From NCBI GenBank assembly GCA_964655785.1, contig CAZZNP010000002.1:6727-70726 (forward strand): 64,000 nucleotides of DNA, written 5' to 3'. The position numbers and the translations under genes were made by a program. Positions within the stretch are counted from its first letter, which is position 1. Each line of letters starts with the position of its first letter. The DNA comes from an uncultured Gemmatimonadota bacterium. GTDB lineage: Bacteria > JAAXHH01. Shown one piece after another: positions 4,612 to 26,067 of the stretch. Below the pieces are notes generated by a model, which saw only the letters and a list, made by a program, of their open reading frames with translations, made no database searches and was not told where the DNA came from.

Positions 4612-4646
4612 TCCACTCTGAATCGGTGGAGCGGCGGGATAAAAAC

Positions 4647-5030
4647 TCAGGGCGCCCGGGACTTCAGCCGGAAGGCGAAGATGTCGAGAACGTCCTGGGA
4701 CAGCGTAATTCCGCTCGAATGGCGGGCCGCTTCGGCGTACACGGATATCGGTTGGGACGGCCTGAAATACAGGTCACGCTGGATGGCGATGCCGAACCTT
4801 CCCTTGAACTTTTCGACCTCGGAAACATGGATCGTCCCCAGCTCAGGACAACCGAAGCCGAGATCGACCAGACCGTGGGCGATATCGGGGTCCGCCGGAT
4901 CAAGCCAGGCGATCAGCCACGTGGCCGGACCGGCCGGATCGAACAGACGGACCACCGGATGGTGGTCCGCATCGGGTTTCGCACCGTTCCTGAGCAGCTG
5001 CTCGCGCTGCTCGTCCGTGATCAGCTTCAT
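4647..5030 (-). CDS. DUF2958-family protein (plasmid/ICE-associated)
   Basis: MKLITDEQREQLLRNG...PVVRLFDPAGPATWLIAWLDP...GLVDLGFGCPELG pattern typical of DUF2958. 4-nt overlap with the upstream gene. Confidence 0.65.
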   Translation of the reverse strand: MKLITDEQREQLLRNGAKPDADHHPVVRLFDPAGPATWLIAWLDPADPDIAHGLVDLGFGCPELGTIHVSEVEKFKGRFGIAIQRDLYFRPSQPISVYAEAARHSSGITLSQDVLDIFAFRLKSRAP

Positions 5031-6820: not shown

Positions 6821-6860
6821 TCTCTGTCATGGCCATGTCCATTACCCGATCGGGAACCCT

Positions 6861-7621: not shown

Positions 7622-7864
7622 TCTCACTGCCTCCCTGGGGCCGTTGATGACAGCGGCGACAGCCAGGTGTTTGCGGTCGGCAGTGGCGCGGTGGGTGGCC
7701 TTGCCGCGATCGTCCGTGAGCCAGGCGGTCCATTTGCCGCGGACGAACCCGCGATGCGGATTGGCGATCTGCCACTGATAGACGGATCCCGACCGATTGC
7801 CGCAAACCCAGGAATAGTCACGGCCCTTGCATTTGCGGCGGGTGTAGCGGATTTTCATTCTCAT
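7619..7864 (-). CDS. Small Cys-containing hypothetical protein, translationally coupled to the PAPS-reductase-like gene
   Basis: Strong AGGAGG RBS 6 nt upstream of the ATG at 7864. The stop overlaps the start of the next gene (ATGA). Confidence 0.45.
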   Translation of the reverse strand: MRMKIRYTRRKCKGRDYSWVCGNRSGSVYQWQIANPHRGFVRGKWTAWLTDDRGKATHRATADRKHLAVAAVINGPREAVR

Positions 7865-8259
7865 GGTGTCCTCCTGTGTCGGGTGGTCGTAAAAAAGCCG
7901 GCGCATGTGCGCCGGCCCTGGAAGGGAAATGTGAGTCGATCGTCAGTGAAGCCTGGTTGATCCGGCTGCCTGACGGTTCCTGCGCAATGACCTGGCGACG
8001 AACCGGGTCCACTGGTCGCGGGACAGTCCGAGCCTGGCATTGAACCGGTCACAGACCGTTTCAGCGGTCTTCAGGTTCAGGGCGATCAGTGAAGTCGGTA
8101 TCGAACCGGGCATACCGTCGACGAAGATCCGGATCTGCTGGGTCTCGCCGGGCGGCCCTGCCCCATAGTCGGGGCTGAAGCAGAAGTTGGGGATCGCCGG
8201 CAAATCATGTGTGTTGGTTTCCATGGGAATCACCTGCATGTTCGTTGGATGGGAATAAG

Positions 8260-8277
8260 GGGGCGGATGCCCGCCCC
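8260..8277 (-). terminator. Possible weak intrinsic terminator downstream of the ParB-like gene
   Basis: GGGGCGG-atgc-CCGCCCC hairpin followed on the minus strand by a short TTATT stretch, ~45 nt after the ParB-like stop. Confidence 0.25.
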
Positions 8278-8318
8278 TGGGGGGGGACGGGCACCGTAAC
8301 TTCAGAACCTGAAAGGAA

Positions 8319-10448: not shown

Positions 10449-10974
10449 GGGAATCTCCAGGTTATGTGAAAAATACTTGACAATGGCTCTCTAAAGCCAT
10501 TTACAAGCGTATTAACCTCGCAACCCCACTCCACCTCTGCTAAAAAAGGGATAGGAAGATAGAAATACGTGAAGTAAACTTATAACCGATGAAAATAGGA
10601 TCAATTGAATAGAAAATGCCCAAAGTAACTAAATCAGAAATCGATAAAGGCACAGTGTCCTATAGCATTTTATTGGACGCAGAGGATAGATAAAGACTGG
10701 AGAAGGTGGTACGTGAACGACCAGGGATTCCGGAAGATGCAAAAGATACAAATGCGGCAATCATCCGGGAAATGATCCGAAACTGGGGTGAATTGATTGA
10801 AGAGTTGAATCGACTCCGCAACGAGAATAGAGATTTCAAGGAAGCCGAAGAGCTTGAAATGAGGCTTAAAATAGTAAAAAGCAGGAATACGGCGACGTAC
10901 CTGGAAGGATAGGGAGTAATTCAAAGAGCAATCCCGGACAGACATGAAATTGTCCATCCGGGAATTTTGAACAA
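10449..10974. promoter_or_regulatory. AT-rich ~0.5 kb intergenic region upstream of parB with a perfect palindrome and GGATAG-type repeats (candidate promoter/operator, parS or oriT)
   Basis: ATGGCTctctaaAGCCAT (6-bp arms) sits immediately next to a TTGACA hexamer at 10467-10472. GGATAG/GATAGA repeats occur at ~10549, ~10683 and ~10908. G+C is visibly much lower than the flanking sequence. Confidence 0.35.
10706..10912 (+). CDS. Possible small K/E-rich coiled-coil ORF (GTG start) inside the AT-rich intergenic region
   Basis: 68-codon ORF with poor RBS spacing. Could be non-coding. Confidence 0.15.
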   Translation: MVRERPGIPEDAKDTNAAIIREMIRNWGELIEELNRLRNENRDFKEAEELEMRLKIVKSRNTATYLEG

Positions 10975-12375
10975 TCAACTGAAGATCATGTCGACCCGCT
11001 CCCCCCATGGCTCCCGATACCGCTCATCGGGTATTCCACCCCAATTGACCCATACGACGCCGAAGGGGGGTTCGTCGGGATAACTGATACACTCCATATC
11101 AGTGAGGTATAGGCAGACTCCGGGCTGCTTGCCCTGCTCTTCCAGCCAGGAGAATCCCGGCCGAAAATCGGTCCCGCCACTGCCCTTGAGTACGATTTCA
11201 TCTGGCAGATCGGAATACGAATATTCCGATACGTCCTGTAGGATGGTGTCCACCTGCAGTACGGTGACATCTTCGGGCTGAAGTTCCATGACGACCTGAC
11301 GAACCTCGCCCCAGAACTCCGTGAGAATCTCGGGACGTGACCAGATGGACCCGGAGGTGTCGATGATCACGGCAATGCTGTTGATTCCCTCGGAACGTAT
11401 CGACGGCAGGTAGAGCCCACCATCGATGAAGCGCCGATTGGGCAGGCTCCAGCTGTAGTCGCGGCTGACGGCGTCCTTCATGTATCGGCGCAGCAGGGTA
11501 CGCCAGTCCATTATGCTCGTGTGAGCATCCTCGATCGTCTCCTTGACATGGCCGGGCACCCTGCCCTCGGCCTTGGCCAGATTCAGTGCCTGGTGCATGG
11601 CCTCGTCCCAGGCCTGCTCCTCGTCGATCTTCTGTTCATCCATGAGGCCGGCGCCGGCGTCATCATCCGGGGACGCGTCCATTACTTCACCGGTTCCGGA
11701 CGGGTCGTGGCTTTCCTGCGTATCCGAGCCGGTGGAATCCTGTGGATCGTTCCTGGGGTCATCATCGGACTGTTCCGGGTCTCTGGAGTCGTCATGGCCG
11801 CCATCATCATCCGATTCGTCGGGTTGACACTGCTGCACGGGATCATTCTGATCACCTGCAGAACCCGAATTCTCGGGATCCACGGATTTATCATCAGTTC
11901 CTGCAGATCCAGGCATTGACATGCCAGCATCAGACTGCGGGGCCCCATTGGACCCACCCTCTTCCTGATCGTGTTCATCCAGACGCGCGTAGGCTTCCTC
12001 CACGCTCATGTCATCCCATGATTCGGCATCGGCCGGCAGGGTGAACCCGGCATCCAGAAGCATGGAATGGGTGACATTCTGCGACGCCTTCTGCCACCGT
12101 TCCGGATCCCTGTCTCCCCTCCGAGTGTGGTGCTTCAGGGAACACGCGAGAACCACCCGGGCGATCGAGGTTTCGATCCGGTGCGCATCCGTCTCGGCGA
12201 CCCACCCGGGGGAATATCGGATATTCCGGCCGTCACATGCCAGCGTCTTCCGGGTGGAATCGGCCACAAGCGGCAGCCTGAGCGCCAGGCTGCCGAAGAA
12301 AGGTTGAGACCGAAGGAGCCCGCTCACGATATCGCTGACGCGCCGGGCCGACTCTGCCGTGATGCGGGAGTTCAT
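10975..12375 (-). CDS. VWA-domain protein with an N-terminal DUF2201-like putative metallopeptidase domain and a long acidic low-complexity linker (partner of the MoxR ATPase)
   Basis: C-terminal VWA/MIDAS-like motif AVIIDTSGSI. Start chosen at MNSRITAE (12375), which has a GGGAGG RBS and an ATGA overlap with the DUF3150 stop. A ~110-aa D/E/S-rich segment lies mid-protein. Confidence 0.6.
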   Translation of the reverse strand: MNSRITAESARRVSDIVSGLLRSQPFFGSLALRLPLVADSTRKTLACDGRNIRYSPGWVAETDAHRIETSIARVVLACSLKHHTRRGDRDPERWQKASQNVTHSMLLDAGFTLPADAESWDDMSVEEAYARLDEHDQEEGGSNGAPQSDAGMSMPGSAGTDDKSVDPENSGSAGDQNDPVQQCQPDESDDDGGHDDSRDPEQSDDDPRNDPQDSTGSDTQESHDPSGTGEVMDASPDDDAGAGLMDEQKIDEEQAWDEAMHQALNLAKAEGRVPGHVKETIEDAHTSIMDWRTLLRRYMKDAVSRDYSWSLPNRRFIDGGLYLPSIRSEGINSIAVIIDTSGSIWSRPEILTEFWGEVRQVVMELQPEDVTVLQVDTILQDVSEYSYSDLPDEIVLKGSGGTDFRPGFSWLEEQGKQPGVCLYLTDMECISYPDEPPFGVVWVNWGGIPDERYREPWGERVDMIFS

Positions 12376-13271
12376 GCCGCCTCCCGGGTGACAACCGGTG
12401 GTGAACCAAAATATCCGGCGAACTGTTCCTTCAGAGCCTCGGCATCCCGTTTCACCTGCCTGCGAACCACGGGATCGTAGATCTTCGAGGGCCGGAGGCT
12501 GTCCGGCTCCACGCTGGCAATGCGTTCCTTCACCTGCTCGCACAGCCGGGCGAGATCCTCGTCGCCGAAGATGTTGAGATTGGGAACGACGTCCACCAGA
12601 TCCCGAATGTTCTCGATCATCGAGTTCCGGAAAACCAGGGGCTTGCCGTTCTCATCTTCGTTCAGGCGATCGGCAACCTTTTCCACGGCTTCCCCGAGAC
12701 GCTTGTAGAGATCGCCCACGGCATCGTGGAGACGCTCACCTACATGACGCTCGATGTCGCGCCGGACCTTGTCCGTGTCGTCCGATGCCAGCCTGGCCAT
12801 GAAATGGTCGGCCGCCGGCACCGGAGTGATGTTGTATCGGATGCAGAACCTGCCGTGGAGGGAGTCCCTTGCGGGATATTCCTCGATGCGGAAGAGCTTT
12901 CCAAGATCGGAACGGGCCTGCTCGACGTTGTCGTCGTAGTCCCGGATGAACTGGGCTCTTTCACGCACCACCTTCTCCCGCATCTCATCGATGAGGCTGG
13001 TGTAGCGCTCGTAGTTGGCCACCGTGAGCAACCTACTGCCCTGGTCATCCCAGGGGAGCGTATTGGCGTAATGGAGAGTACGCGCCTTGCTCATGACCCC
13101 ATTGAGCACGGAGAAAGCCGATTTGGGCAGAAGCAGCTTGTTGTAACGGCCGGCGGAGGCACTGGCGTCATGGGTTGCGGCCACATGGTCACTGGCCTGG
13201 CGATCGTAGAGCCGGCCGGACCAGGCGGAAATCCGAAGGTGGACCAGCATCGCGTCTTTGTTGAGATTCAT
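12372..13271 (-). CDS. DUF3150-family protein
   Basis: MNLNKDAMLVHLRISAWSGR...NYERYTSLIDEMREK... pattern. Position between the MoxR and VWA genes is typical for this family. Confidence 0.55.
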   Translation of the reverse strand: MNLNKDAMLVHLRISAWSGRLYDRQASDHVAATHDASASAGRYNKLLLPKSAFSVLNGVMSKARTLHYANTLPWDDQGSRLLTVANYERYTSLIDEMREKVVRERAQFIRDYDDNVEQARSDLGKLFRIEEYPARDSLHGRFCIRYNITPVPAADHFMARLASDDTDKVRRDIERHVGERLHDAVGDLYKRLGEAVEKVADRLNEDENGKPLVFRNSMIENIRDLVDVVPNLNIFGDEDLARLCEQVKERIASVEPDSLRPSKIYDPVVRRQVKRDAEALKEQFAGYFGSPPVVTREAA

Positions 13272-13295
13272 GATGAATATTCTCCTGTGAAATGG

Positions 13296-14315
13296 TTAAG
13301 AGGTTTTGGCGGCGGCCCAGCGGATATAGGCCGGCGTCCGTTGCAGGTCCGGGTCCTGGCGAATGCAGGAGCCGACCAGGAATTCGCCGACCTCCCGCCT
13401 GAGGCGGGTGGCGTAGGCAACGATGGCGTCCACGTTGACGTCATTGGCCAACCGGTAGAGCGAGCCGCACAGCGCGATCAAGGCACTGGAGTTCTCCGGG
13501 ATATCGGCGTTCTCCGGATCGTCGATAACCGCACGCGGGTGGGGCAATTCGCGCCACACGTTGAGAAAGGCGGAAAATTCAACCGCCGCGGCTTCACCCA
13601 CGGTTCCCTTGAAGATCGCCCTTTCAGCGGCCGGATCGAGGCCGTTGCGGTGCCGCAGGACGTTGGAGACGAATTCCCAGGTCCTGGGGCACGGAAACGC
13701 TGGTTCCCTGGACTGCGGATCGAACACGTGCAGGAGATTCGGCCGGAACTGGATGAAGAACAGAACTTCAGGAGCAATGCCGCTGGAAGCGGCCCATGCG
13801 CACCAGTCATCGGGATCGACCCGGACCTCGATATGGACAAAACGGGAAGCCAGCGGTGTCGGCATCCGGTGGACGACGCCACGGTCGGATTCCCGGTTGC
13901 CACAGGCGATGACAGCTGCAGCGTCGGGCAGTTCGTATTCGCCGACACGTCTGTCCAGCACGAGCTGGTACATGCTTGCCTGGACCATGGGAACGGCGGA
14001 CGGAAGCTCTTCAAGGTTGATGAGCCACTTGCCGCTGTCGGTGGATGGCGGCAAGAACGCCGGCGGCGCCCAGCGGGTGCGTTCATCAGAATCACGCCAG
14101 GGGATGCCGCGGAGGTCCACGGGATCCAGCAGGAGAGCACGGACGTCGACATATTGCCGGCCGGCATCACTGGCCACCTGCTGGGCGATCTGGGACTTGG
14201 CTGCCCCTGGGGGCCCCCAGACCATCGTAGGTTGCTGGGCTTCGACGAGAACAGCCAGCGTCGAGGCGAGTTCGGACGGCCGCAGGGTGTAGTCTGCGGA
14301 AATGGATTGGGTCAT
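13296..14315 (-). CDS. MoxR-family AAA+ ATPase
   Basis: Walker A MVWGPPGAAKSQIAQ, Walker B/sensor region LINLEELPSA...ACGNRESD and box VII HRMPTPLASRF. The internal start at 14315 has a better-spaced RBS than 14378. Confidence 0.75.
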   Translation of the reverse strand: MTQSISADYTLRPSELASTLAVLVEAQQPTMVWGPPGAAKSQIAQQVASDAGRQYVDVRALLLDPVDLRGIPWRDSDERTRWAPPAFLPPSTDSGKWLINLEELPSAVPMVQASMYQLVLDRRVGEYELPDAAAVIACGNRESDRGVVHRMPTPLASRFVHIEVRVDPDDWCAWAASSGIAPEVLFFIQFRPNLLHVFDPQSREPAFPCPRTWEFVSNVLRHRNGLDPAAERAIFKGTVGEAAAVEFSAFLNVWRELPHPRAVIDDPENADIPENSSALIALCGSLYRLANDVNVDAIVAYATRLRREVGEFLVGSCIRQDPDLQRTPAYIRWAAAKTS

Positions 14316-14603
14316 TGCAATGCTCCGGAAATGGTGAATGGGAATGCCGGCACCCTCTCGGTTTCCCGGCTCACTCATCTCCAGGCATCACACGAACTCT
14401 ATTTCACTGAAAACAATGAATAAGTGTCCATCCCGCGACAAATTGCTACGTAACTGGACTACACTCGGAGGGTTGGTTATTCATATTACCTAGTTCATAA
14501 TTCGGCAGTTTCAGGAATTCGAGAACCAGATCTCGAAAAATCTAATAGAATCAGTAAAGTACTTCACCAATTCACCAGAAACACAGAGAGGAGGCACTAA
14601 AAT

Positions 14604-16256
14604 ATGGGGCAAAAAAGAATCCTCCTGATGGAACCCGGGTACCGGAACAAATACCCTCCCCTTGGGCTGATGAAGCTCGCGGCATATCACAAGGCCCGCG
14701 GGGACTACGTAAAGTTCACAAAAGTGGGTTTCGGCAAGGACGAGGGGATGTCATCACTGCTGGAGGCCCCATGGGACAGGGTTTACGTCACTACGCTGTT
14801 CAGCTTTGAATGGAAACGGACAGCCGAGGCCATTGATCGGGCAATCCAGATCGCGGCAATGCAGCCGGAGAGAGTCTTTGTGGGTGGAATCGCCGCCTCT
14901 TTGATGCACGATGACTACCAGAATGAACCCAAGTGGGCTGGAGTCCGGTTCATAAAGGGACTTCTGGTGGGATCACCCGCGGAGTCCCTGAAACTGTCAG
15001 CTGACGATTACGATTTCGGTGCGGATGACCTGTCAGGGCGCCCAATTGAAGAACGGACCCCGGATTACGAGATTCTGTCAGACATCAGCTACACCTACCC
15101 GGTACGAGACGCCTATTTCGGCTACGCATCGAGAGGCTGCGTCCGGAAATGTGCGTTTTGCGGAGTGCCCAAGCTCGAAGGCCCACAGCGTGAAATGCCA
15201 CCCCTGACGGAACTTGTGAATGGAATCGACGCTGCCCACGGGGTCAAGAAGGACATGGTGCTGATGGACAACAACATCACCGCATCCGCCCGATACAAGG
15301 AAGTAATCGCCGAATTGCGGGATCTGGGATTCGAGTCCGGAGCCACAATTACAAATCCTAGCGGCCGGAAAGTGAAACGGCGCGTGGATTTCAACCAAGG
15401 AGTCGACGCCAGAATTCTGGCCAAGTCGCCGATGTACCTCAAGGAAATGTCCAGTATCTGCATCAGCCCGCTACGCATCGCGTTCGATCATATCGGGATG
15501 AAGAAGGTCTACGATGTGGCCATCAGGATGGCGGCAGACAACGAAATCACGTCGCTGTCGAATTACATGCTTTACAACTTTATGGACTCGCCCAGTGACC
15601 TGTATGAGCGAATGAGGCTGAATATTGCACTAAACGAGGAGCTGGGGATCAGGATCTGGTCGTTTCCCATGAGATACCAGCCTGTGACACTCAAGGAGCG
15701 TACTCACGTGGGAAAATTCTGGAACCGATACTACTTGAGATCTTTCCAGATCATGCTCCAGGCAACCCATGGTCTGGTCAGTGGTAATCCGTCTTTCTTC
15801 AGGCGGGCATATGGCGAGGACAAGCACGAATTCGAGCATCTACTCAGCTTGCCCCACGCCTTCATTTTCCACCGGGACCACTACGAATTTGAAGACGGAA
15901 GACCAGTTCTAGATGAATATTTTGGGCACCGCAAACGTTTGTCCGAGAGTCAGGAGAAAGAATTGATCGGATACCTAGCGGGACCGGATGGTGCAATATC
16001 CGGTCTACCAAGGAAGCACTACACGAAGCTGATAAGCGACAGCACGATAGCCCCGGCAATTCGTGAAGTTTTGAGATTCCACACCCTCGATACCAGGCAC
16101 CGGCTTGGTTCCGAGGACAAGAAAATCCTGCCAGTATTTTCACAACTCAATCCTGACCCTGTCATGCCCGAAGAGGATGAACACGTGGAAGACGCTGGCC
16201 TTTACGATGATGATGCAACGCAACAAGACATAAGAGATAAACGCGTAAGCGTCTAA
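14604..16256 (+). CDS. Radical SAM enzyme with an N-terminal B12-binding-like domain (class B rSAM-like)
   Basis: N-terminal ILLMEPGYRNKYPPLGLMKLAAY (B12-binding-domain-like) and the CxxxCxxC cluster YASRGCVRKCAFCGVP. GAGGAGG RBS. Lies in the AT-richer island. Confidence 0.8.
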   Translation: MGQKRILLMEPGYRNKYPPLGLMKLAAYHKARGDYVKFTKVGFGKDEGMSSLLEAPWDRVYVTTLFSFEWKRTAEAIDRAIQIAAMQPERVFVGGIAASLMHDDYQNEPKWAGVRFIKGLLVGSPAESLKLSADDYDFGADDLSGRPIEERTPDYEILSDISYTYPVRDAYFGYASRGCVRKCAFCGVPKLEGPQREMPPLTELVNGIDAAHGVKKDMVLMDNNITASARYKEVIAELRDLGFESGATITNPSGRKVKRRVDFNQGVDARILAKSPMYLKEMSSICISPLRIAFDHIGMKKVYDVAIRMAADNEITSLSNYMLYNFMDSPSDLYERMRLNIALNEELGIRIWSFPMRYQPVTLKERTHVGKFWNRYYLRSFQIMLQATHGLVSGNPSFFRRAYGEDKHEFEHLLSLPHAFIFHRDHYEFEDGRPVLDEYFGHRKRLSESQEKELIGYLAGPDGAISGLPRKHYTKLISDSTIAPAIREVLRFHTLDTRHRLGSEDKKILPVFSQLNPDPVMPEEDEHVEDAGLYDDDATQQDIRDKRVSV

Positions 16257-16278
16257 GAATCAACCCTGAGGAGTTACC

Positions 16279-17757
16279 ATGCCGAAGAACACCGAACCAG
16301 CATCCCTGGTGGGAGCGGATATACTGAACCTGGTTACAACCGGTATGTACCACACCCCACTTGCAATTTACCGGGAATACATTCAGAACTCGGCTGACGC
16401 GGTCGAAAAGTCCAAGTGGCGTGACCAGGGACGAGTAGAGATCTCAATCAATCCAGGAAGCAACAACGTCAAAATCAGGGACAATGGCCCTGGACTGTCA
16501 CCTGAACAGGCAATACGGAATCTGATACCAATTGCGAGGAGTTCCAAGCAGCGCGGTGTAGACCGCGGCTTCAGAGGAATCGGCCGGCTTTCAGGCCTAG
16601 CGTTCGCGGAAAAAGTTACCTTCAGAACGAGAAGCAAGAAAACACAGCCGATAACCGAGGTTTCCTGGGACGGAATATCCCTACGTGCGAATGCTGTCTC
16701 CAATTCGGATCCGGAAAAGATCATCAGAAACTGTGTACAGGTATCGGAAATAGATGACAGTGGATGGCCAAATAACTTCTTCGAAGTGGAGATTGAAAAA
16801 ATATCCAGATATGCGGCGGACAGGATCCTGAACCGAGAAGCTGTCCGAAGATATATTGCAGAGGTGGGGCCGGTTCCCATGTCAGAATCGTTTCCGCTTG
16901 CGAAGGACGTAGAGGCTCTCTTCCCGGATGAAAACAGACTTCTAGCACTGGAAGTCACCTTGGAAGGAGAGGAAGAGCCGATACGGCGCATGCATGGTTC
17001 CGGCCTCAAGTTTTCGGAAGACCGGAAGGATACCTTTAGGGAAATAGAAAGAATCAGAATTCCGGCTGTTGACAGCGAAAAAGATGCAGCAATCGGGTGG
17101 ATCGCTCACACATCATATCTGGGGGCAATCCCAAAAGACATGGGGGTACGAGGGATCCGGCTCAGAGAAGGGAACATACAGATCGGAGATGAAGACGTCC
17201 TAGATCCTCTGTTCAAGGAAGAACGCTTCAACAGGTGGTGCATAGGGGAATTACACGTGATCGATTCACGGCTCCTGCCGAATGGTCGCCGTGATTATTT
17301 CGACCCCAGCCCACACGTGAGACATGTTGAAAATCATCTTGAATCAATCATCCACGGGGTTGTGAAAAGATGTCGGAGTGCTTCATCTAACCGGGTACAG
17401 TCGAGGAAGCTACATACGGTACTGGAACACATGGACAGTGCATATAGTATTGCTGGCTCGGGTTATCTGAAAGCGGCAGACGCCAAGGCCCTCATAGCGG
17501 AAGCCCTGGAAAAATTGCAAGAGCTCGAAGACAACATGCCCGAAGGAGGCCTGATATATCAACAAAACGGGAAAAAGCTAATTGAACTCAAAACGAAACT
17601 GAACGGATTCAAACCAAGGAGAGGCCGGCCGTCCCTGGAAAACGTCCGCAGCGGGGAGGTTGCTACCTACCAGAGAATATTCAGGGCGCTGACGGAATTT
17701 TGCCATTCTCCGGCAATTGCCAAGGAGATGATCGAGGGAGTTCTAAAACACGCTTAG
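16279..17757 (+). CDS. GHKL ATPase (HATPase_c_3 / MORC-like)
   Basis: N-box REYIQNSADA, G1 box IRDNGPGLS and G2 box FRGIGRLSGLAF. 22-nt gap after the rSAM gene; same strand and composition. Confidence 0.75.
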   Translation: MPKNTEPASLVGADILNLVTTGMYHTPLAIYREYIQNSADAVEKSKWRDQGRVEISINPGSNNVKIRDNGPGLSPEQAIRNLIPIARSSKQRGVDRGFRGIGRLSGLAFAEKVTFRTRSKKTQPITEVSWDGISLRANAVSNSDPEKIIRNCVQVSEIDDSGWPNNFFEVEIEKISRYAADRILNREAVRRYIAEVGPVPMSESFPLAKDVEALFPDENRLLALEVTLEGEEEPIRRMHGSGLKFSEDRKDTFREIERIRIPAVDSEKDAAIGWIAHTSYLGAIPKDMGVRGIRLREGNIQIGDEDVLDPLFKEERFNRWCIGELHVIDSRLLPNGRRDYFDPSPHVRHVENHLESIIHGVVKRCRSASSNRVQSRKLHTVLEHMDSAYSIAGSGYLKAADAKALIAEALEKLQELEDNMPEGGLIYQQNGKKLIELKTKLNGFKPRRGRPSLENVRSGEVATYQRIFRALTEFCHSPAIAKEMIEGVLKHA

Positions 17758-17825
17758 CACAGTAGTTCCTGACTCGTGGTTCACGAGTTAATAAAACACC
17801 AATTCACCCCCAGGTAGTCGATTGC

Positions 17826-20132
17826 ATGGACAAAGAATATCTAACACCCATCATTGCAGGAGACGAGATCACGTCTGAACTTAGGCGAAGACGTAGCAAG
17901 GATAGATTTCAAACGATTAAAGCGACGAATAAAAGCCGTCTTGCTGAGAAAGTAAAGCTGGAAACGGAAGAAGGATGGAAAGTAGCAAAGAAAAACAAAA
18001 AATCTACCCGAATGGCGAAGGAAAAGCCGGGCGATGAACAACTGGAGGATGAAATCTGGTGCATGCTTGCACGGATGGGATTCAAGGAATTGAGCCATGG
18101 TCGTCAGTTCACAGTATCGGTAAGAGACGGCCAAAATCCAAGACAGATCGACGTATTCGCCAAGGATGACGAGACAACAATAATCGTCGAATGTACGCAT
18201 AGAAAAACACCAGGAAGAAAAAACATGTCCTCCCTGATTGAAAAGATACAGGCTATTAGAGGGGATACGATCAATTCAATCCGTAAGCACTATGGGAGGG
18301 AGAGTGCACTGAAGTTCGGGGCAGTAATCGCCACAAGGAATATAGATTGGAGCGAGGCCGATCTTGAGAAATGTGCAAATGCAAGAATTAGCGTACTTAC
18401 GGACGGTGAGATTGACTACTATAACGCATTGATAGCGCATCTGAAAAAAGCCGCCCGCTACCAGTTCCTCGCACATATCTTCGGAGGACAGAAAATTGAA
18501 GGACTGGTTACCACAGTACTCGCGACACGTGGAAAAATGGGGGGAAATTATTTTTATACATTCATGGTGAGTCCGGACGCACTTTTAAAAATTGCATATG
18601 TAGGACACAAGGCAAGCAGGGATACAGAGAACATAGAAACATATCAACGAATGCTGCAATCAAATCGGTTAAGGAAAATCGCGGAATACATTAATGAAGG
18701 TGGGAAATTTCCCACCAATATCGTCTTGAACCTGAAAACTAAGAAGAGGAACGACCTAAGATTCGAAGTGATCGAGAAACTTGGTAATGAAGCTCTCGGA
18801 AAATTGCATCTTCCACCGAATTACGCATCTGCTTGGGTCATCGATGGACAACACCGCCTCTATGGATACGCATATGCACGAGAAGGCGAAGGGTTCAAAG
18901 CGGACAAGACTACTCTACCCGTTTTGGCGTTTGAGAATCTGCCGTCAAAAGATGAAATGGACCTGTTCATCGATATTAACAGCAAGCAGGTAAAGGTAAG
19001 CACTAGTTTACTTGTGGAGCTCTATGCCGAGCTACACTGGGGCTCAGATGATTCCGATGAAGCATATGAAGCACTCTTGTCCAGGATAGCGTCAAAACTG
19101 AATTCCGAAAAAACGTCACCTCTTCGTGACAGAATGGTTGTCAGTGGAAAAAAGAAGACACCACACAGATGTCTGACACAAACGTCAATACGTGATGGAC
19201 TTGAAAAAGCTAAATTGATCGGATCCATGACAAAAGACGGATTCATCCCGGGACCTCTATCAACAGGCAAGCAAGACGCAAATCAGGAGCATTTAAAAAA
19301 GAGCGTATCAGTTCTGTCTGCCTGTCTGAATTTGTTTGCCGAACAGCTCAATGATCACTGGAATACAGGAGATGGCCCGGGTGGATATTTATGCACCAAT
19401 ATCGGAGTCAGAGCCATCTTTCATGTGATCAAGGACATAGCTGATCATTATCATCAAAAAAGTGGACATAACCTTTGTTACCTATCAACTGATGAAACAA
19501 TATCTACATTATCGCCATATTTACAAATATTGGTTGATTATTTCAAAGATGCATCCCCTCAGGAGATTCAGGATTTTAGGGGGATAGGATCTTCATTGGT
19601 GGCGGTTCGAAAACAATCATTCGGAATGGAAGCCCAAATTAACGAAAAAATAAATGAATTTTGCCCTGTAGAACTCAGAGAGTACCTAGATTCAAGGGAT
19701 GAAGCAGGAACACATGATGCGACAATATTGGTTAATCAAATACATTCGAAACTTTCAAAATATGTCATTGATACTTTGAAAAAAGAACACGGAGAAGAAA
19801 ACAAGGCATGGTGGACATTAGGAATCCCTAAAAATATTAGGATCGAATGCGCTAAGAAATGGGAAGAAGAAAACCGTAAAGGAGAGGAAGAAGGACAGCT
19901 ATTGTTGATCAACTACAAAGATATATGTCTCTTGAATTGGGAATTATTCAAGGACGTAATATCATTCGACGCTAGAGATAAAGAAAATAAAAGAGAAAAC
20001 ATAAAATGGATAATTGAATTGAATGAGATAAGAAGAATAACAGCCCATCCAGAAAGGGGAGTTCTAAATAAAGAGCAAGTGATAAAAGTCAATGAGATTT
20101 ATGAAAAACTGATTGAATATTTACCAGAATAA
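17826..20132 (+). CDS. DGQHR-domain (DndB-like, ParB-fold) protein with a possible N-terminal PD-(D/E)xK-like domain and a C-terminal HEPN-like Rx4H motif
   Basis: Exact DGQHR motif in WVIDGQHRLYGYAYA at the protein centre. The N-terminal region IDVFAKDDETTIIVECTHRK resembles a restriction-endonuclease-fold motif. C-terminal NEIRRITAHPERG fits the HEPN Rx4-6H signature. 768 aa, lowest G+C in the window. Confidence 0.7.
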   Translation: MDKEYLTPIIAGDEITSELRRRRSKDRFQTIKATNKSRLAEKVKLETEEGWKVAKKNKKSTRMAKEKPGDEQLEDEIWCMLARMGFKELSHGRQFTVSVRDGQNPRQIDVFAKDDETTIIVECTHRKTPGRKNMSSLIEKIQAIRGDTINSIRKHYGRESALKFGAVIATRNIDWSEADLEKCANARISVLTDGEIDYYNALIAHLKKAARYQFLAHIFGGQKIEGLVTTVLATRGKMGGNYFYTFMVSPDALLKIAYVGHKASRDTENIETYQRMLQSNRLRKIAEYINEGGKFPTNIVLNLKTKKRNDLRFEVIEKLGNEALGKLHLPPNYASAWVIDGQHRLYGYAYAREGEGFKADKTTLPVLAFENLPSKDEMDLFIDINSKQVKVSTSLLVELYAELHWGSDDSDEAYEALLSRIASKLNSEKTSPLRDRMVVSGKKKTPHRCLTQTSIRDGLEKAKLIGSMTKDGFIPGPLSTGKQDANQEHLKKSVSVLSACLNLFAEQLNDHWNTGDGPGGYLCTNIGVRAIFHVIKDIADHYHQKSGHNLCYLSTDETISTLSPYLQILVDYFKDASPQEIQDFRGIGSSLVAVRKQSFGMEAQINEKINEFCPVELREYLDSRDEAGTHDATILVNQIHSKLSKYVIDTLKKEHGEENKAWWTLGIPKNIRIECAKKWEEENRKGEEEGQLLLINYKDICLLNWELFKDVISFDARDKENKRENIKWIIELNEIRRITAHPERGVLNKEQVIKVNEIYEKLIEYLPE

Positions 20133-20173
20133 AATAGTGATTTCTAAAAATATCCCATACCCAACAATTCGTC

Positions 20174-20431
20174 ATGTCCATAAAGCCAACTGTTGAACAA
20201 CATGCCTGTTTGGTCAACGGAAAATTCATTTATTCCAGTTATCGGCACGCCCTCGCCGCGACCGATCCCCTGGCTTTCAAAGACAAAGAAAAGGGAAAGG
20301 AACGCAAGAGAGGGCATCGTACGTTCAAGAACAAGGGGCGTGTGACTATCGGGGAAAACGAATACAGACGCATCGATAACGGGCAGTCCCTAGGCAATCT
20401 GCTGGCAGATCTACTGGCTTTCAATAAATAA
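20174..20431 (+). CDS. Hypothetical small basic protein
   Basis: 85-codon ORF directly downstream of the DGQHR gene in the AT-richer island. No recognisable motif. Confidence 0.3.
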   Translation: MSIKPTVEQHACLVNGKFIYSSYRHALAATDPLAFKDKEKGKERKRGHRTFKNKGRVTIGENEYRRIDNGQSLGNLLADLLAFNK

Positions 20432-20464
20432 TCAGAACTTACTTAGCTTGGAAACAGTAAACCA

Positions 20465-21064
20465 ATGGAAGTAAATACTGGTATTGAGATCTGTCTTATC
20501 TCCTACTCGCAAATCATTACCGTTATGTCAACGGCAATAATCGCGGCATCGGCAGTAGTCACAGCCGTACTATCGTGGCGCCTCATATGTGATAACCGAA
20601 CTTTGGCCAAGGTGGGTACTGACCCGGAAGTGATTGCTCACTTGGCAGCAGACCCATTTCGACCCCTTGTCAATCTCGTTTTAGCAAATGTAGGGCGTGG
20701 TCCGGCAAAACAAGTTGAATTCGAACTTATTCTCGAAAAATCCCACTACGACCGCATTGTGCTGAGAAAGGAGCCAGATCGAAAGCCATTTGGATTCCTA
20801 CTTCAGGGAGAAAAAACAGAAATGCTATTTGGCGACCATAGAATGTTTGGAACGGGAGATGAGCGAGCAAAGAACGCGTTACAACCATTTCAAATTAAAA
20901 TTAAGTGGCAAAACCTCAGAGGGAAAAAGTTTGAAGAAAAATATATTCTAGATGTACGTCAGTTTCTCGGACTCCCACCGAACAGTTCCCTATACTCTCC
21001 TCTTTCAAAAATTGCCGATTCATTGGCTAAGATCGAAAAAACGATATCCCGCAGGAACTCTTGA
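20465..21064 (+). CDS. Hypothetical membrane-anchored protein (single N-terminal TM helix)
   Basis: N-terminal hydrophobic segment IITVMSTAIIAASAVVTAVLSW followed by a soluble domain. Last gene of the AT-richer island. Confidence 0.4.
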   Translation: MEVNTGIEICLISYSQIITVMSTAIIAASAVVTAVLSWRLICDNRTLAKVGTDPEVIAHLAADPFRPLVNLVLANVGRGPAKQVEFELILEKSHYDRIVLRKEPDRKPFGFLLQGEKTEMLFGDHRMFGTGDERAKNALQPFQIKIKWQNLRGKKFEEKYILDVRQFLGLPPNSSLYSPLSKIADSLAKIEKTISRRNS

Positions 21065-21148
21065 TTGACAGGTCCGCTGACGGATTGGAGGCGATGGGTG
21101 AATTCATTTACGTTGCAATGCCTGTCGTCAGGCAATATCCCCACCCGG

Positions 21149-21691
21149 CTACAGCAGCCGATAGATGCTGGCCCGGCTAAGTTCATACTTTTCCGCTAGG
21201 TCCCGGATCCGGACGCCGGCGGCGCGCTCACGGCGAAGCTCGGCAACCTGGCCCTTGGTGAGTTTCGAGGGAGGGCCGAATCGCACCCCCTCGTTACGGG
21301 CCCTCGAGATTCCTTCCGCCTGGCGCTCTTTCCGGAGGTGCACCTCGAACTCGGCGACAGCGGCCAGTATCCCGAATACGAGCTTGCCGGCCGAGGTCGT
21401 GGTGTCGATCGCCTGGTCGAGCACGACGAAGCCGACGTCGTTTTCCTGCAACTGCTCGAGGATCCGGTGCAGGTCCAGGGTAGAGCGCGCCAGGCGGTCG
21501 AGACGGGTGATCACCAGAACGTCGCCGCGGCGGACGAACCGGAGACATTCCTTCAGCGCCGGCCGGGCCGCGGTCCGTCCGGAGCGTTTCTCCTGGAAGA
21601 TCTCATCGCAGCCGTATTCCTGGAGTTTCTCGAGCTGCAGGTCCAGGTTCTGTCCGATGGAGCTGACCCGGGCATATCCCACTGTCGCCAT
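21149..21691 (-). CDS. Serine recombinase (resolvase/invertase, Hin-Gin-Tn3 resolvase family)
   Basis: N-terminal catalytic VGYARVSSIGQNLDLQ, the RLDRLAR motif and a C-terminal HTH (GVRIRDLAEKYELSRASIYRLL). Confidence 0.85.
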   Translation of the reverse strand: MATVGYARVSSIGQNLDLQLEKLQEYGCDEIFQEKRSGRTAARPALKECLRFVRRGDVLVITRLDRLARSTLDLHRILEQLQENDVGFVVLDQAIDTTTSAGKLVFGILAAVAEFEVHLRKERQAEGISRARNEGVRFGPPSKLTKGQVAELRRERAAGVRIRDLAEKYELSRASIYRLL

Positions 21692-21820
21692 GTCTCATAA
21701 TGTCTTGAGGTAGTGAGACTGCAATTATAAGACGACTTATAAGACGGTCATATCCCTGATTTCGGACCGTCTCGTAAAGTGTACAATGTAAGACACGTAA
21801 TATGCTGGCGTCTTGAGACT
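21691..21820. promoter_or_regulatory. Candidate res/recombination site: cluster of inverted repeats built on GTCTC/GAGAC and AGACGG cores upstream of the recombinase gene
   Basis: TGTCTCA (21691), GTCTTGAG (21702), TGAGACT (21714), AAGACGAC (21729), AAGACGGTC (21741) paired with GACCGTCTC (21765), AAGACACG (21790) and GCGTCTTGAGACT (21808). Confidence 0.4.
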
Positions 21821-21870
21821 CCCAGCACCGTGGGGCTACACTAGGAATCTTTCGTTACAGGAAAACAGCC

Positions 21871-22485
21871 ATGGCCACCAAGGCGGCAACGAAGGCTATG
21901 CCAAGGGCTACCTACCAGGACGTCCTCGATGCACCACCGCACAAGGTAGCGGAGGTCATTGAGGGAACCCTGTATCTGAATCCAAGACCGGCGTCCAGAC
22001 ATACCAGGGCAAGTTCTGTTCTTGGCAGTAGTATCGGGACGCCCTACGACTATGACAGAAATGGTCCCGGTGGATGGTGGATCCTCGACGAGCCGGAGCT
22101 GCACCTCGGCGAGGACATCCTGGTGCCCGACTTGGCGGGGTGGCGCCGGGAGCGGATGCCGGAATATCCTGATGTGAAATTCTTCACCCTGGCGCCGGAT
22201 TGGGTATGTGAAATTCTCTCCCCGTCTACGAGGGCGATCGATCAGGGCCTGAAGCGTGCAATCTACGCCCGGGAAGGGGTGACATGGCTCTGGTTCGTCG
22301 ACCCCGACGTCCGCACTCTGGAGGCCTTCGAACTGCGTGATGGCCAATGGCTTCTCCTGAAAACCCTGACCGAGAGTGATGCAGTGTCCCTGCCCCCGTT
22401 CGAAGCGATCAGTTTCAGTCTCGGGGATCTGTGGCCCTACAGTGGTGAGAAATCCGTTTCCGAAAATGGAGAGGAGGTGACCTGA
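21871..22485 (+). CDS. Uma2-family (DUF820) endonuclease
   Basis: Uma2 signature layout: EVIEGTLY near the N-terminus, VPDLAGWRRERMPE, and the catalytic-region motifs PDWVCEILSPST...D...K...YAREGV.W.WFVDP. Confidence 0.7.
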   Translation: MATKAATKAMPRATYQDVLDAPPHKVAEVIEGTLYLNPRPASRHTRASSVLGSSIGTPYDYDRNGPGGWWILDEPELHLGEDILVPDLAGWRRERMPEYPDVKFFTLAPDWVCEILSPSTRAIDQGLKRAIYAREGVTWLWFVDPDVRTLEAFELRDGQWLLLKTLTESDAVSLPPFEAISFSLGDLWPYSGEKSVSENGEEVT

Positions 22486-22493
22486 AATCCGGT

Positions 22494-22676
22494 ATGGACA
22501 AGACGAACCTCATCGTGCTGGTCATACTGTTCGTAGCTGCCGCCCTTGCAGCAACGTTCTGGCGGGCCGTGCGCAGCACGCAGATGAGAAAGGAAAGGAA
22601 CGACAGAAGATCCGCCAGGCGGCACAGGAAAATCACCCGGCAGTACCGGGAGGAACAGGACCGGCTCGGCGAATAA
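22494..22676 (+). CDS. Possible small membrane protein
   Basis: 60-codon ORF with one hydrophobic helix and a basic tail. Weak evidence. Confidence 0.2.
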   Translation: MDKTNLIVLVILFVAAALAATFWRAVRSTQMRKERNDRRSARRHRKITRQYREEQDRLGE

Positions 22677-22956
22677 TCCGGTCAGGCAAGGTGGTGATTC
22701 CGCACATTCCCGGAACCGGAATTTCCCGGCAGGTGGGGCGGACCCCGCAGGCCTTCAGCTGAAGAATCGTCGAAAAGCCGGCCCGGCGTGGGGAATCGGG
22801 GTTCAGAATAGGCCCGTTTTTTGACATTCCGGGCCACTCGGCAAGGGTGAAACACGTAACAGATCACTGTACGGCCCGAAATGGATGGGATCAGGATGCA
22901 TTTGGCAGCCAGATCGGCAAACCGAAGTACCTGAATCCGCCCGGCCGGTAGAACAC

Positions 22957-25900
22957 TCAGTCAAACAGATCACGTCCCCCATGTGTAGGGGGCCCGGTTT
23001 CTACCGGCACTGCCTGATCCGGCAGCAAGCCGGAGACGATCTCCTCGATTTCCCGGCCAGCGTCACTTGAGTGGACAGCGGCTCGAATCGCCTTTGATAT
23101 GCCAACCTGGCTCATCCCGGGTTTCCCTGCAAGGGCTTCACTGGCTGCCTCCTGTGCCAGTTTCTCGGTTTCCTCGCACAGCTTCGCCAGTCGCCGGTGT
23201 TGATCGATATCTTTGTTGAAACAGGGTATCGGGACCTTCCACCACGGATGAAGATGAAAGTCCCTGCCGCTCCCTCTGCATTGCCTGAAGGCCGTTTCCA
23301 GGCATGCGGCATTCAGCAGGGCAACCAGATATCCGGCTTCTTCCTTGTCCCGCACAGCCATCCAGTAAAGTTTCGAGCTCACAACAAAATTGCCAGTCGT
23401 TATCCTTGCAGCCCGCATGATGTCCCCGGAGGTTGGATAGAGAACAATCCATCCGTTGGTGTTTTCAGAGTCGAGTTGTGCCGACAGCTTTGACTGGAAA
23501 TCGAATTGCTTAAGTAAGGCCTTCGGCGTCGATTTCCCCTTTCCTGCCCTGCTTTCGTAGATCTCGTCCAGTTCACGCCAGAATGAACATTCATTGCCGG
23601 GGTTCTCAAGCAAGAATCCCTTTGTGTCCACCGGCACGATGCCCTTCACAGGCCGCACCGGGGGGATGTACGCCACCATCTCGGTTGAAGTAAGAACCGG
23701 ACGTACCCAGTGTGCCGGCATCAATCCGGTCTGGGGCCTGACCTCTTTCCACGGTTCCTTTGTCGATCGCATTGTCGTGACACGGACCATGCCTTCATGA
23801 TTCGGTCCTTCGATTTCATCCAACAGCGCAAGCACGTGGGGAACCAGTGTCGCGCCCTGCTTAATCATGACCGAATTCAGATATCCGGACTTCTTCTGCG
23901 GAAGCTGGGCGGGAGCCTCGCTGAATCCGAATTTCCGCCTGGCCGATTCCAGGGACTCTGATGACTTCGGACGTACGCCCCTGACCTTCAGCCGGGCTTC
24001 CAGTGTGCCGGGGCTGATGCCTTCGGATATATCGAACGCACAGTGCTCCATCAGTAGGCAACTGCGGGTTGCATCACCGCTACCGAATGGCTGCAACTGC
24101 TCCAGGTCGACCGATTGCCGCAAGGTGTTTCGATGAACTGACCGGAACGGCTCCCATTGCCCAGCAGCGATGGCGGATTTCTTCACCAGCCAGGATGCGG
24201 GGTTGCTCTCCGGTTTGGCCATGTAAAGCTTCCTGGCCGCCAGAATGAAATAGCTGGCGATATCGGAGTGAGGGGCCTGTTTCCCGGCACCGGTCAGACC
24301 CAGAGACCTGCCGTACTGTTCCAGAGTTCTCTTCCGGTCCGTGGCCTGTATCTCCGCCAGCTTCACCCAGGGTGGATTGGCCACGATCCGATCGACCTTT
24401 TTCTGTGCCAGAAGGTGGGGAGCGGCGATGTTGATCGTGTACCAGGTCCAGACCGAGTTGCCCTCGGCAGCAATGATCTCGGTCAGGGCCTGGTGGCAAT
24501 GTTCCAGCCGCTCGGATTCCACTTCCGACAGGGATTCCTTCAGGAACCCGGGCAATGGTTGACCCGCGGTCGCGGCACTGACAATCTCACGCATGTCGTT
24601 GGCAAACGTCCCTCTCCGGACGAATTTCATGGGGACCCGTATCTCCCTTTTTTCCGGAGTCTCGACCCTCATCAGGTCCTCGGTGTGTTCGAACAGGGAC
24701 TTCTGGTTTCCGGAATCGGCCTGCAGAGAATCACCCAGGTGCACCTGGAACGACTGGCCGCCCATGGTCGGCGGCGCCGGCAGGATCCTCTCCAGGTTCA
24801 CGCGTGCGAGTTCCACTGCCACGGGATGGATGTCGATCCCGTTGACCAGGCGTGAAACGATGTCGGCCCGCTGCACCGGTGTGAATGACTGCATTGACTT
24901 TGACGCCAGCAAACGGCGGGCCGCATGGAGAAGGAACGTGCCGGAACCGCAGGTGGGGTCGAGAACCCCGACTCCCCGAACTTCCGTACCACCGCGGATG
25001 GAGGCTATCGCGGCATTGATGGCCCGCTCCATCCATTGCTCGTCGAGAACCTCCTCCACCATCAGTGCAGCCAGCCAGTCCGGGGTGTAGAATTCACCGA
25101 AGACCTTCCGATCATGCGCGCTCACGTTATGATGGTACAGGCTGCGCAGGACATCTTCCTCGCGCCTCCGCCAGTCGTACGAGGTAACAAGCCTGTACAG
25201 TTTCCCTGCCCACTTCCGCCCACGCTCGAATTCCAGCACCCATGCGGCGAAACCATCACGTACCGCCGTCTTCCAGTCCGAACCCGAATTGGCCGGAAAC
25301 AGGGAGTGGGAAACCAGGCGGACCACTGCGATCAGGAAGCTGTGGGTGACGAACAGCCTGTCCTTCCCGGCTTCGTCGCCGGGAACCATGCCGGACGTTC
25401 GCATCATGTCCAGCCAGAGATCCCTTTTGGTCCGGGTAGGTCCTGCTGCATTAGCGGGAAGCGCAGCGTAAAGGCTGAAGAGTTCATTCCTGAGGGAGGT
25501 GAAGAGTGCTCCCGGATCCCCCGGTATCCACTCCTTGCCGAAATTCCTTTCGGCCAGAAGCGAGTGGAGGAATTCGGCCAAGGGAAGGGCCTCGTTCATG
25601 AATCTCAGGGGCGATCCGACAGGTTCCCCGATGGATTGAGGCCGATGGCTGTATTCATACACGTGCCAGTGCCGGCCGTCGGTCACAATGCCCACCCAGT
25701 TGCTCCGGACGAACTCAACGTCGTCGAAGGGAATCCTGCCCAATTCCCGGTTGATCTCGCCGATGACGTAACGGTCCAGCTGTTGCCGCGGCGACTCCGA
25801 CAGCCTTCCTTGCTGGGGTTTGTCAGGCTCTGCCGCCAGCGGATATGCCTTCAGCTCGATGAATGTCCTGCGATTGGGCAGATAAATGTCCGCCTCGCCG

Positions 25901-26067
25901 TCAACAGTCGTGTAGTGGGATTCGATCGACCCGACCTTGATTTCCCGAAGCAGGGCCTCAAGATCGGACTGCAGGTTGCCTTCCCTTTCGTGCCGCTCAA
26001 GGGGGTGGTTGAGAAACGCGGATGCAGCATCGAGGACTGCCTGACCCGGTGGCTTGCCCCGGGTCAT
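22957..26067 (-). CDS. Type IIG (MmeI-like) restriction-modification enzyme: N-terminal PD-(D/E)xK nuclease, gamma-class N6-adenine methyltransferase and C-terminal target-recognition region
   Basis: N-terminal D-x10-ELK (GEADIYLPNRRTFIELKAY). MTase motif I GVLDPTCGSGTFLLHAA and motif IV IVANPPWVKL. A 1036-aa single polypeptide. Confidence 0.8.
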   Translation of the reverse strand: MTRGKPPGQAVLDAASAFLNHPLERHEREGNLQSDLEALLREIKVGSIESHYTTVDGEADIYLPNRRTFIELKAYPLAAEPDKPQQGRLSESPRQQLDRYVIGEINRELGRIPFDDVEFVRSNWVGIVTDGRHWHVYEYSHRPQSIGEPVGSPLRFMNEALPLAEFLHSLLAERNFGKEWIPGDPGALFTSLRNELFSLYAALPANAAGPTRTKRDLWLDMMRTSGMVPGDEAGKDRLFVTHSFLIAVVRLVSHSLFPANSGSDWKTAVRDGFAAWVLEFERGRKWAGKLYRLVTSYDWRRREEDVLRSLYHHNVSAHDRKVFGEFYTPDWLAALMVEEVLDEQWMERAINAAIASIRGGTEVRGVGVLDPTCGSGTFLLHAARRLLASKSMQSFTPVQRADIVSRLVNGIDIHPVAVELARVNLERILPAPPTMGGQSFQVHLGDSLQADSGNQKSLFEHTEDLMRVETPEKREIRVPMKFVRRGTFANDMREIVSAATAGQPLPGFLKESLSEVESERLEHCHQALTEIIAAEGNSVWTWYTINIAAPHLLAQKKVDRIVANPPWVKLAEIQATDRKRTLEQYGRSLGLTGAGKQAPHSDIASYFILAARKLYMAKPESNPASWLVKKSAIAAGQWEPFRSVHRNTLRQSVDLEQLQPFGSGDATRSCLLMEHCAFDISEGISPGTLEARLKVRGVRPKSSESLESARRKFGFSEAPAQLPQKKSGYLNSVMIKQGATLVPHVLALLDEIEGPNHEGMVRVTTMRSTKEPWKEVRPQTGLMPAHWVRPVLTSTEMVAYIPPVRPVKGIVPVDTKGFLLENPGNECSFWRELDEIYESRAGKGKSTPKALLKQFDFQSKLSAQLDSENTNGWIVLYPTSGDIMRAARITTGNFVVSSKLYWMAVRDKEEAGYLVALLNAACLETAFRQCRGSGRDFHLHPWWKVPIPCFNKDIDQHRRLAKLCEETEKLAQEAASEALAGKPGMSQVGISKAIRAAVHSSDAGREIEEIVSGLLPDQAVPVETGPPTHGGRDLFD

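Follow-up and report, generated by a model that had tools for sequence, protein, structure and literature searches.

A 64,000-nucleotide stretch of DNA from an uncultured Gemmatimonadota bacterium (contig CAZZNP010000002.1, positions 6,727 to 70,726; hereafter the window) encodes a 768-amino-acid (aa) protein with a central DGQHR domain. The question that this locus raises is what the large regions on either side of that domain are, and which system the protein serves. A sequence-only reading of the window had described the protein as a DGQHR protein about twice the size of DndB, flanked by nuclease-type domains, which would make it a self-contained effector. The open reading frame (ORF) is real, and the strand opposite 17826-20132 is closed and stop-rich. 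The protein is built from a restriction-endonuclease (REase)-fold domain, a DGQHR domain and an HEPN domain, as follows.

17826..20132, plus strand: 768-aa REase-DGQHR-HEPN protein with an ATG start, from the ORF listing
17826..18521, plus strand, residues 1-232: PD-(D/E)xK restriction-endonuclease-fold domain, from structure model and motif
Residues E74/D75, D109, E122 and T124: candidate active site of the REase-fold domain, with T124 replacing Lys
18522..19439, plus strand, residues 233-538: DGQHR domain, DndB-type ParB/Srx-like, from hidden Markov models (HMMs) and motifs
19737..20114, plus strand, residues ~638-763: Swt1/Abi2-type HEPN domain, from HMM, fold and motif
20031-20048: Rx4H motif of the HEPN domain, R736...H741

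The 768-aa protein belongs to the DGQHR family. TIGR03187 matched residues 233-538 with 203 bits against a cutoff of 58.85 (E 7.6e-60), Pfam DndB (PF14072) matched the protein with 57.8 bits against a cutoff of 29.1, and the PADLOC DpdB model matched it at E 2e-19. With a length of 350-370 positions, the DndB and DpdB models span just the middle third of the protein, which bears out the earlier estimate of its size. PMC4619093 defines three signature motifs of the DGQHR domain, here the QR pair (Q274 R275), the DGQHR pentapeptide (residues 340-344, nucleotides (nt) 18843-18857) and FxxxN (F381...N385), and all three were invariant in an alignment of 40 divergent relatives. Motif conservation was counted in 40 divergent representatives at 27-55% identity, all 40 of which keep DGQHR. 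Searches of PDB chains with the protein and with its family profile detected no related solved structure.

The N-terminal flank has a PD-(D/E)xK fold. When residues 1-232 were modelled separately with 30 sequences, the prediction reached a predicted local distance difference test score (pLDDT) of 93 and a predicted template-modelling score (pTM) of 0.88. The model contains the alpha-beta-beta-beta-alpha-beta core of the PD-(D/E)xK superfamily and shows a FokI/AF1548-like variant of it. The segment IDVFAKDDETTIIVECTHRK (residues 108-127, nt 18147-18206) holds D109...E122-C-T124. D109 is kept in 38 of the 40 divergent representatives, E122 in 34 and C123 in 39. At the family level the motif is canonical, with E74/D75 on the first helix, D109 and E122-C123-K124, and some relatives match the Hjc, NERD or Card1_endonuc HMMs. 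Position 124 is Thr in this protein and its clade. The ExK-like REase segment proposed earlier therefore stands as regards the fold and the conserved D109 and E122, but not as regards the motif, which is E122-C-T124. FokI, BspD6I, Can2, Card1 and AF1548 differ from the protein in that they are 7-18% identical, share no common architecture with it and have ExK where it has ExT. When the N-terminal 232 aa were used to look for homologues, every match was a fragment from this family, and no other architecture carrying the domain turned up. Many database entries are fragments of 140-400 aa from the N-terminal part of the family, some of them on long contigs, which suggests that the big gene is often truncated or turned into a pseudogene, or that assemblies are broken.

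The C-terminal flank was shown to be an HEPN domain of the Swt1/Abi2 type. It has the all-alpha HEPN fold, and its best HEPN-fold structural match was AbiF (overall rank 4). The sole HMM match of this flank was HEPN_Swt1 (E 6.4e-4 with the whole protein, 1.8e-4 with the domain alone), which also matched 8 of 40 relatives at E<=0.01 (best 3.2e-6). Like the HEPN domains of Swt1/Abi2 (AbiD/AbiF), the domain has a C-terminal Rx4H motif, R736-x4-H741, which lies in NEIRRITAHPERG (residues 733-745, nt 20022-20060). R736 is kept in 34 and H741 in 31 of the 40 divergent representatives, and the RH pair is intact in 74 of 75 complete genomic homologues, which upholds the HEPN motif claimed in the sequence-only reading. 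Conservation on this scale goes beyond chance for the short motifs. Both flanks are thus nuclease-like in fold, and their motif residues are conserved except for the REase Lys, so neither of the two conditions that the sequence-only reading named for its own refutation holds.

This three-domain architecture is that of an old and widespread family. More than 120 full-length relatives at 61-78% identity were found in a 90%-cluster database, and an exhaustive search gave 2585 representatives at the 50%-identity level with E<1e-3, 478 of them with E<1e-30. At least 150 cluster representatives, down to ~28% identity, keep the three-part layout of 750-790 aa. In genomes the family is present in Proteobacteria, Acidobacteriota, Chloroflexota, Firmicutes, Bacteroidota, Spirochaetes, Verrucomicrobia and several archaeal lineages. 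Phage genomes yielded isolated DGQHR domains only and no full-length relative.

In the window the big gene is preceded on the same strand by two genes, in the order radical SAM, 22 nt, GHKL, 68 nt, 768-aa gene. These two genes form a cassette with the following features.

14604..16256, plus strand: putative radical SAM enzyme, 550 aa, opening the cassette, from motif, a weak Pfam match and homologue names
15132-15170: CxxxCxxC motif of the radical SAM enzyme, C179/C183/C186, within RGCVRKCAFCGVP
16279..17757, plus strand: GHKL (Bergerat-fold) ATPase, 492 aa, from Pfam HATPase_c_3 and motifs

We surveyed partner genes at 80 further genomic loci, with up to 10 kb of flank on each side; the partner analysis covered 85 loci in all. 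Radical SAM and/or GHKL genes were present within 10 kb at ~41 loci including the window, and the radical SAM gene adjoined big-protein homologues in ~40 loci. The big proteins linked to these genes share about 39% identity or more with the query. The self-contained effector of the sequence-only reading has to be given up, since the gene is tied to the radical SAM and GHKL cassette across loci. At 39 loci of a more distant clade the only recurrent neighbour was an adjacent, same-strand N6-adenine DNA methyltransferase of the D12 class (PF02086, E 7e-52) or the MT-A70 type (PF05063, E 4e-30). Neither type occurred in any radical-SAM-linked locus, and radical SAM and GHKL genes were not found in the methyltransferase-linked clade apart from two loci, L045 and L077. 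In a neighbour-joining tree the radical-SAM-linked and methyltransferase-linked groups formed separate clades. The proteins of L045 and L077 are ExK proteins inside the methyltransferase clade, yet they have the radical SAM gene (plus GHKL). Since they nest there with a radical SAM partner, partner exchange occurred more than once. The window contains no D12 or MT-A70 homologue, and a classical methyltransferase-based restriction-modification (R-M) system was rejected for the window module because it lacks the cognate methyltransferase that the sister clade has at 39 loci.

The first cassette gene encodes a probable radical SAM protein of a large family, with at least 7338 clusters at 90% identity and E<=0.001. 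C179, C183 and C186 are the sole conserved Cys residues across 35 homologues, and relatives carry the NCBI name 'radical SAM protein'. Pfam Radical_SAM (23 bits against a cutoff of 29.5, E 1e-4) and Pfam B12-binding (16.9 bits against 32.1, E 5.6e-3) both matched below threshold. Judged from its sequence, the conserved N-terminal module, ILLxEPGYxNKYPPLGLMK, resembles a Rossmann-like domain of the B12-binding type, and we compare it with the B12-binding-like domain that class B radical SAM enzymes have. Searches of PDB chains with the protein and its profile gave nothing beyond weak cluster-motif matches to RimO-like proteins. The second cassette gene encodes a GHKL ATPase that matched HATPase_c_3 with 43.7 bits against a cutoff of 25 (E 3.5e-11). 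Its motifs REYIQNSADA, IRDNGPGL and RGFRGIGRLSG are conserved and the Bergerat set is intact, with ExxxNxxD, DxGxG and GxxGxG-type motifs conserved across 34 homologues. The same protein also had a weak NCBIfam match to the BbrUII/HgiDII restriction enzyme family.

The radical SAM gene precedes the GHKL gene in 34 of 35 loci, and the big gene lies before, after, convergent to or divergent from the cassette. Because its position and orientation vary among loci, the linkage between the big gene and the cassette survives rearrangement. Pairwise distances of radical SAM and GHKL proteins correlated at r = 0.83, and those of the big protein and the radical SAM protein at r = 0.54, a value reached by 0 of 2000 permutations in a Mantel test. 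The nearest relative of the window big gene is in L003 (69%), whereas the nearest relatives of the window radical SAM gene are in L002/L010 (one contig), L012 and L013 (68%), with L003 at 52%. The G+C content also differs inside the operon, at 53% for the radical SAM gene, 51% for the GHKL gene and 41% for the big gene, in a window of 61.5%. Since the distances correlate yet the closest relatives and the G+C contents differ, effector and cassette are linked in function and have nonetheless been shuffled. The two differences suggest that the module was assembled via recombination between related systems. The big gene lies in a stretch of 41-53% G+C, and the module sits on a low-G+C island that was probably acquired horizontally.

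What would the cassette do for the big protein? An adenine methyltransferase in tandem with a nuclease-bearing protein is the signature of R-M, and by substitution the cassette therefore most likely supplies a protective modification. On the sequence evidence, the 768-aa protein is, on balance, probably the effector ('restriction') subunit of a three-gene, R-M-like defence module carried on the acquired island. In such a module the DGQHR domain would bind DNA and a nucleoside triphosphate (NTP) and act as a switch that reads whether the DNA bears the self-mark, the role that ParB/Srx-type domains have in DpdB, DndB and SspE/GmrSD. Unmarked foreign DNA would cause the switch to license the N-terminal DNase domain, and the C-terminal HEPN RNase would serve as a second, possibly suicidal, effector. 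The GHKL protein would act as an ATP-driven DNA clamp or loader that brings the radical SAM enzyme to DNA, and the radical SAM enzyme would fill the functional slot of the methyltransferase and write a protective, radical-SAM-dependent mark on host DNA. We infer that the self-mark is produced by radical-SAM chemistry. A more specific version is offered tentatively, as one possibility: a radical SAM enzyme of the cobalamin-domain type and the GHKL protein would together write a chemically new DNA mark that replaces N6-methyladenine, and the REase-DGQHR-HEPN protein would read this mark and attack unmarked DNA, with RNA as a back-up target. The mobile elements on which the module travels (an ICE, a conjugative plasmid and a Tn7-like transposon), and the type IIG R-M gene, Uma2 gene and recombinase beside it in the window, speak for this proposal. 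The fusion of ParB-like domains with HNH, PD-DExK or HEPN nucleases is a known theme in defence (PMC3632139, PMC3710099). MORC-type ATPases have been proposed to act as ATP-driven clamps or loaders in R-M systems (PMC2292703), and DpdB is an ATPase needed for base exchange or insertion by the DNA-modifying enzyme (PMC10164549).

Several observations weigh against this proposal. The canonical REase Lys is replaced by T124 here, and the DNase activity is a prediction. HEPN_Swt1 scored 20.4 bits with the whole protein and 22.2 with the domain alone, below the Pfam gathering score of 27.5, and R or H is lost in ~20% of distant representatives. The DGQHR domain was poorly predicted in the full-length model (pLDDT <50 at residues 340-358 and 378-394), so that its ParB/Srx fold rests on HMMs and motifs; the full-length prediction had a pTM of 0.45 and gave no Foldseek match at E<1e-3. 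The radical SAM protein matched no characterised radical SAM subfamily in the HMM libraries, and its target could be RNA, protein or a nucleotide instead of DNA. Finally, the correlation between residue 124 and the partner genes is essentially one ancient split with two exceptions and not many independent events.

That correlation bears on the strongest of the alternatives. Lys124 is present in 36 of 39 methyltransferase-linked proteins, and Thr124 is fixed in 37 of 41 radical-SAM-linked ones. The change from Lys to Thr may represent a loss of DNase activity, which keeps in play the idea that the 768-aa protein is a targeting or regulatory ATPase that loads or restrains the radical-SAM machinery and is not an effector. 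In this clade the REase domain would then bind DNA as a degenerate module, and the HEPN domain would be a remnant that has a structural role or binds RNA. We regard this as unlikely, since D109, E122 and E74/D75 are nearly invariant in the Thr clade, which would be unexpected of a dead site, and since R736 and H741 are intact in 35 of 36 complete radical-SAM-linked members. In the effector proposal, the change from Lys to Thr that goes with the partner switch would instead mark an adapted active site, which need not be dead. K140 and R171 are basic residues specific to the Thr clade and might be candidates for a relocated basic residue. This Lys is also missing from BamHI (ExE) and BglII (ExQ), both of which are active REases. 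Some loci carry an extra, small DGQHR protein (~340 aa) ahead of the radical SAM gene. The window form lacks it, and the big protein may supply its function, as a regulatory role would have it; DpdB acting for DpdA and DndB for DndCDE provide precedents (PMC10164549, PMC10853773). Many loci, however, encode both the small and the big DGQHR protein, so the big one is not simply a DndB-like partner.

The locations of the module raise another explanation. It recurs in Algicella marina, on an integrative and conjugative element (ICE) with type IV secretion system genes, in metagenome-assembled genomes, on the conjugative plasmid pNL1 of Novosphingobium aromaticivorans and on an Agrobacterium plasmid. 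Carriage on ICEs, plasmids and Tn7-like elements is consistent with mobile elements using it as an abortive-infection or addiction module, in which the HEPN RNase, and perhaps the DNase, would be a toxin that the radical SAM-GHKL pair neutralises, or the pair would sense infection, with a benefit in element stabilisation or competition between elements. The HEPN domain belongs to the Abi2/AbiF type, and work cited in PMC10853773 has ParB/Srx enzymes acting in plasmid conflict. We nevertheless consider this explanation doubtful, and less likely than a regulatory role, as it leaves unexplained both the DNA methyltransferase partner in half of the family and the invariance of the DNA-binding DGQHR domain and the REase fold.

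Some of these mobile copies have further genes. In L087-L089 (2253-13576) the small DGQHR gene, radical SAM gene, GHKL gene and a convergent big gene are cargo of a Tn7-like transposon with TnsA, TnsB-like, TniB and TniQ, and an AIPR abortive-infection gene adjoins the module; its exact radical SAM protein occurs in 78 indexed blocks of the collection. At ~10 loci a PIN_8-like protein (~650 aa) and a second GHKL protein, ~29% identical to the module GHKL and paralogous to it, adjoin the module (L004 15850-19403; L005 5329-8651; L006, L025, L026, L028, L029, L037, L038). The window lacks this pair, which may form a companion system or provide a second effector arm. L090/L091 (5079-10211) has an intact radical SAM gene flanked by a 333-aa gene and by a 153-aa stub at the place of the GHKL gene, with split SNF2 helicase fragments upstream and no big DGQHR gene within 8 kb, and looks like a decayed version of the module.

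Least likely of all is a Type IV-like arrangement in the style of SspE, GmrSD and BrxU, in which the DGQHR NTPase would sense modified invader DNA and trigger the nucleases while the radical SAM-GHKL pair does something else (such as sensing, signalling or nucleotide chemistry): DUF262-DUF1524 enzymes do share the design, in which a nuclease is joined to a ParB-like NTPase (PMC4619093, PMC3632139), and SspE was among the weak structural matches, but the tandem adenine methyltransferase at 39 sister-clade loci is a signature of restricting unmodified DNA, and no DUF262 or DUF1524 HMM matched the 768-aa protein or 40 relatives in Pfam at E<=0.01. Neither this nor the addiction explanation accounts for the methyltransferase alternative, and both have weaker support for that reason.

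The effector of an R-M-like module, as we propose it, resembles several known systems in part. SspE, GmrSD and BrxU are likewise ParB/Srx-type NTPases with DGQ(Q/H)R fused to a nuclease in modification-aware defence. They differ in having DUF262 and a DUF1524 HNH domain where the 768-aa protein has PD-(D/E)xK and HEPN domains and another ParB-like subfamily, and, unlike them, its relatives pair with methyltransferases, implying restriction of unmodified DNA. A GmrSD/SspE-type enzyme was ruled out on the missing DUF262 and DUF1524 matches. DndB and DpdB are single-domain proteins with QR, DGQHR and FxxxN, as in the central 300 residues of the 768-aa protein, and are encoded beside a complex non-methyltransferase enzyme, as here beside one that may act on DNA. 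They are half the size, lack the REase and HEPN flanks, and have DndACDE or DpdA/C as partners instead of radical SAM and GHKL. The equivalog scores of the 768-aa protein were 23.7 against a cutoff of 328 for DndB (TIGR03233), 62.6 against 300 for DpdB (NF041060) and 102 against 450 for DGQHR_dnd_1, and no TGT-like (DpdA) neighbour was found in the window operon or the related loci. With scores far below cutoff and the wrong partners, DndB and DpdB were rejected as identities.

In 2013 Anantharaman et al. (PMC3710099) catalogued fusions that join HEPN to ParB-like and REase domains in R-M contexts, with a Table 1 entry 'ParB (Saro_3948), mostly active'. Saro_3948 may be a member of this family; the only N. 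aromaticivorans homologue that we found is SARO_RS17535 on pNL1. The radical SAM and GHKL partners and the methyltransferase alternative are absent from that catalogue. The MORC/paraMORC GHKL ATPases of R-M systems (Iyer, Abhiman & Aravind 2008, PMC2292703) are likewise GHKL proteins inside R-M-like operons, but those systems have no radical SAM, ParB or DndB association, whereas here the GHKL gene is locked to the radical SAM gene. Ophion (rSAM+PHP+PRTase; bioRxiv 10.1101/2025.09.30.679545), a radical-SAM defence system, is unrelated. In the big protein PADLOC models recognise nothing but DGQHR and HEPN, and they do not recognise the radical SAM or GHKL genes. We found no description of the DGQHR/radical SAM/GHKL triad, of the methyltransferase alternative or of the coupled change from ExK to ExT in the searchable literature, which excludes subscription journals, where the triad may have been described. 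Collectively, these results point to an undescribed, R-M-like, modification-based defence system.

If the cassette does supply the modification, the family is a natural experiment in which the same effector scaffold works with an adenine methyltransferase or with radical-SAM chemistry, and the hunt for a new DNA modification becomes directly testable. Should the tentative version with a new mark also hold, a canonical radical SAM enzyme would itself be making a DNA modification as part of a defence system. The family, which is abundant, mobile and spread over bacterial phyla and archaea, is also a clear case for a ParB/Srx-type switch that controls two different nucleases, and a case for what the ExT variant of the PD-(D/E)xK site does.

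The module is surrounded in the window by the following genes.

13-4611, minus strand: Strawberry-notch-type helicase, 1532 aa
5027-6820, minus strand: GHKL-like protein
8319-10448, minus strand: ParB-N/HTH protein, 709 aa
10975-12543, minus strand: DUF2201 metallopeptidase/VWA protein
13296-14378, minus strand: MoxR-like AAA gene
20174-20431, plus strand: 85-aa ORF, 41 nt after the big gene, low G+C, no family match
20465-21064, plus strand: 199-aa ORF with a hydrophobic N-terminus, 33 nt further, low G+C, no family match
21871-22485, plus strand: Uma2-family putative restriction endonuclease
22957-26067, minus strand: type IIG restriction-methyltransferase, 1036 aa, a separate fused R-M gene

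The two ORFs at 20174-21064 are doubtful as members of the module, as they have no counterpart in any of 85 related loci. A promoter and terminator scan of 14300-21800 did no better than shuffled sequences, and no tRNA was found within the window to mark an integration site. The block at 21149-26067 contains, on the minus strand, a 180-aa serine-recombinase fragment that corresponds to the N-terminal part only of an XisF-like protein. Upstream of the module, the genes at 10975-12543 and 13296-14378 resemble a MoxR-VWA pair, and the block from 13 to 14378 looks like ICE or plasmid cargo.

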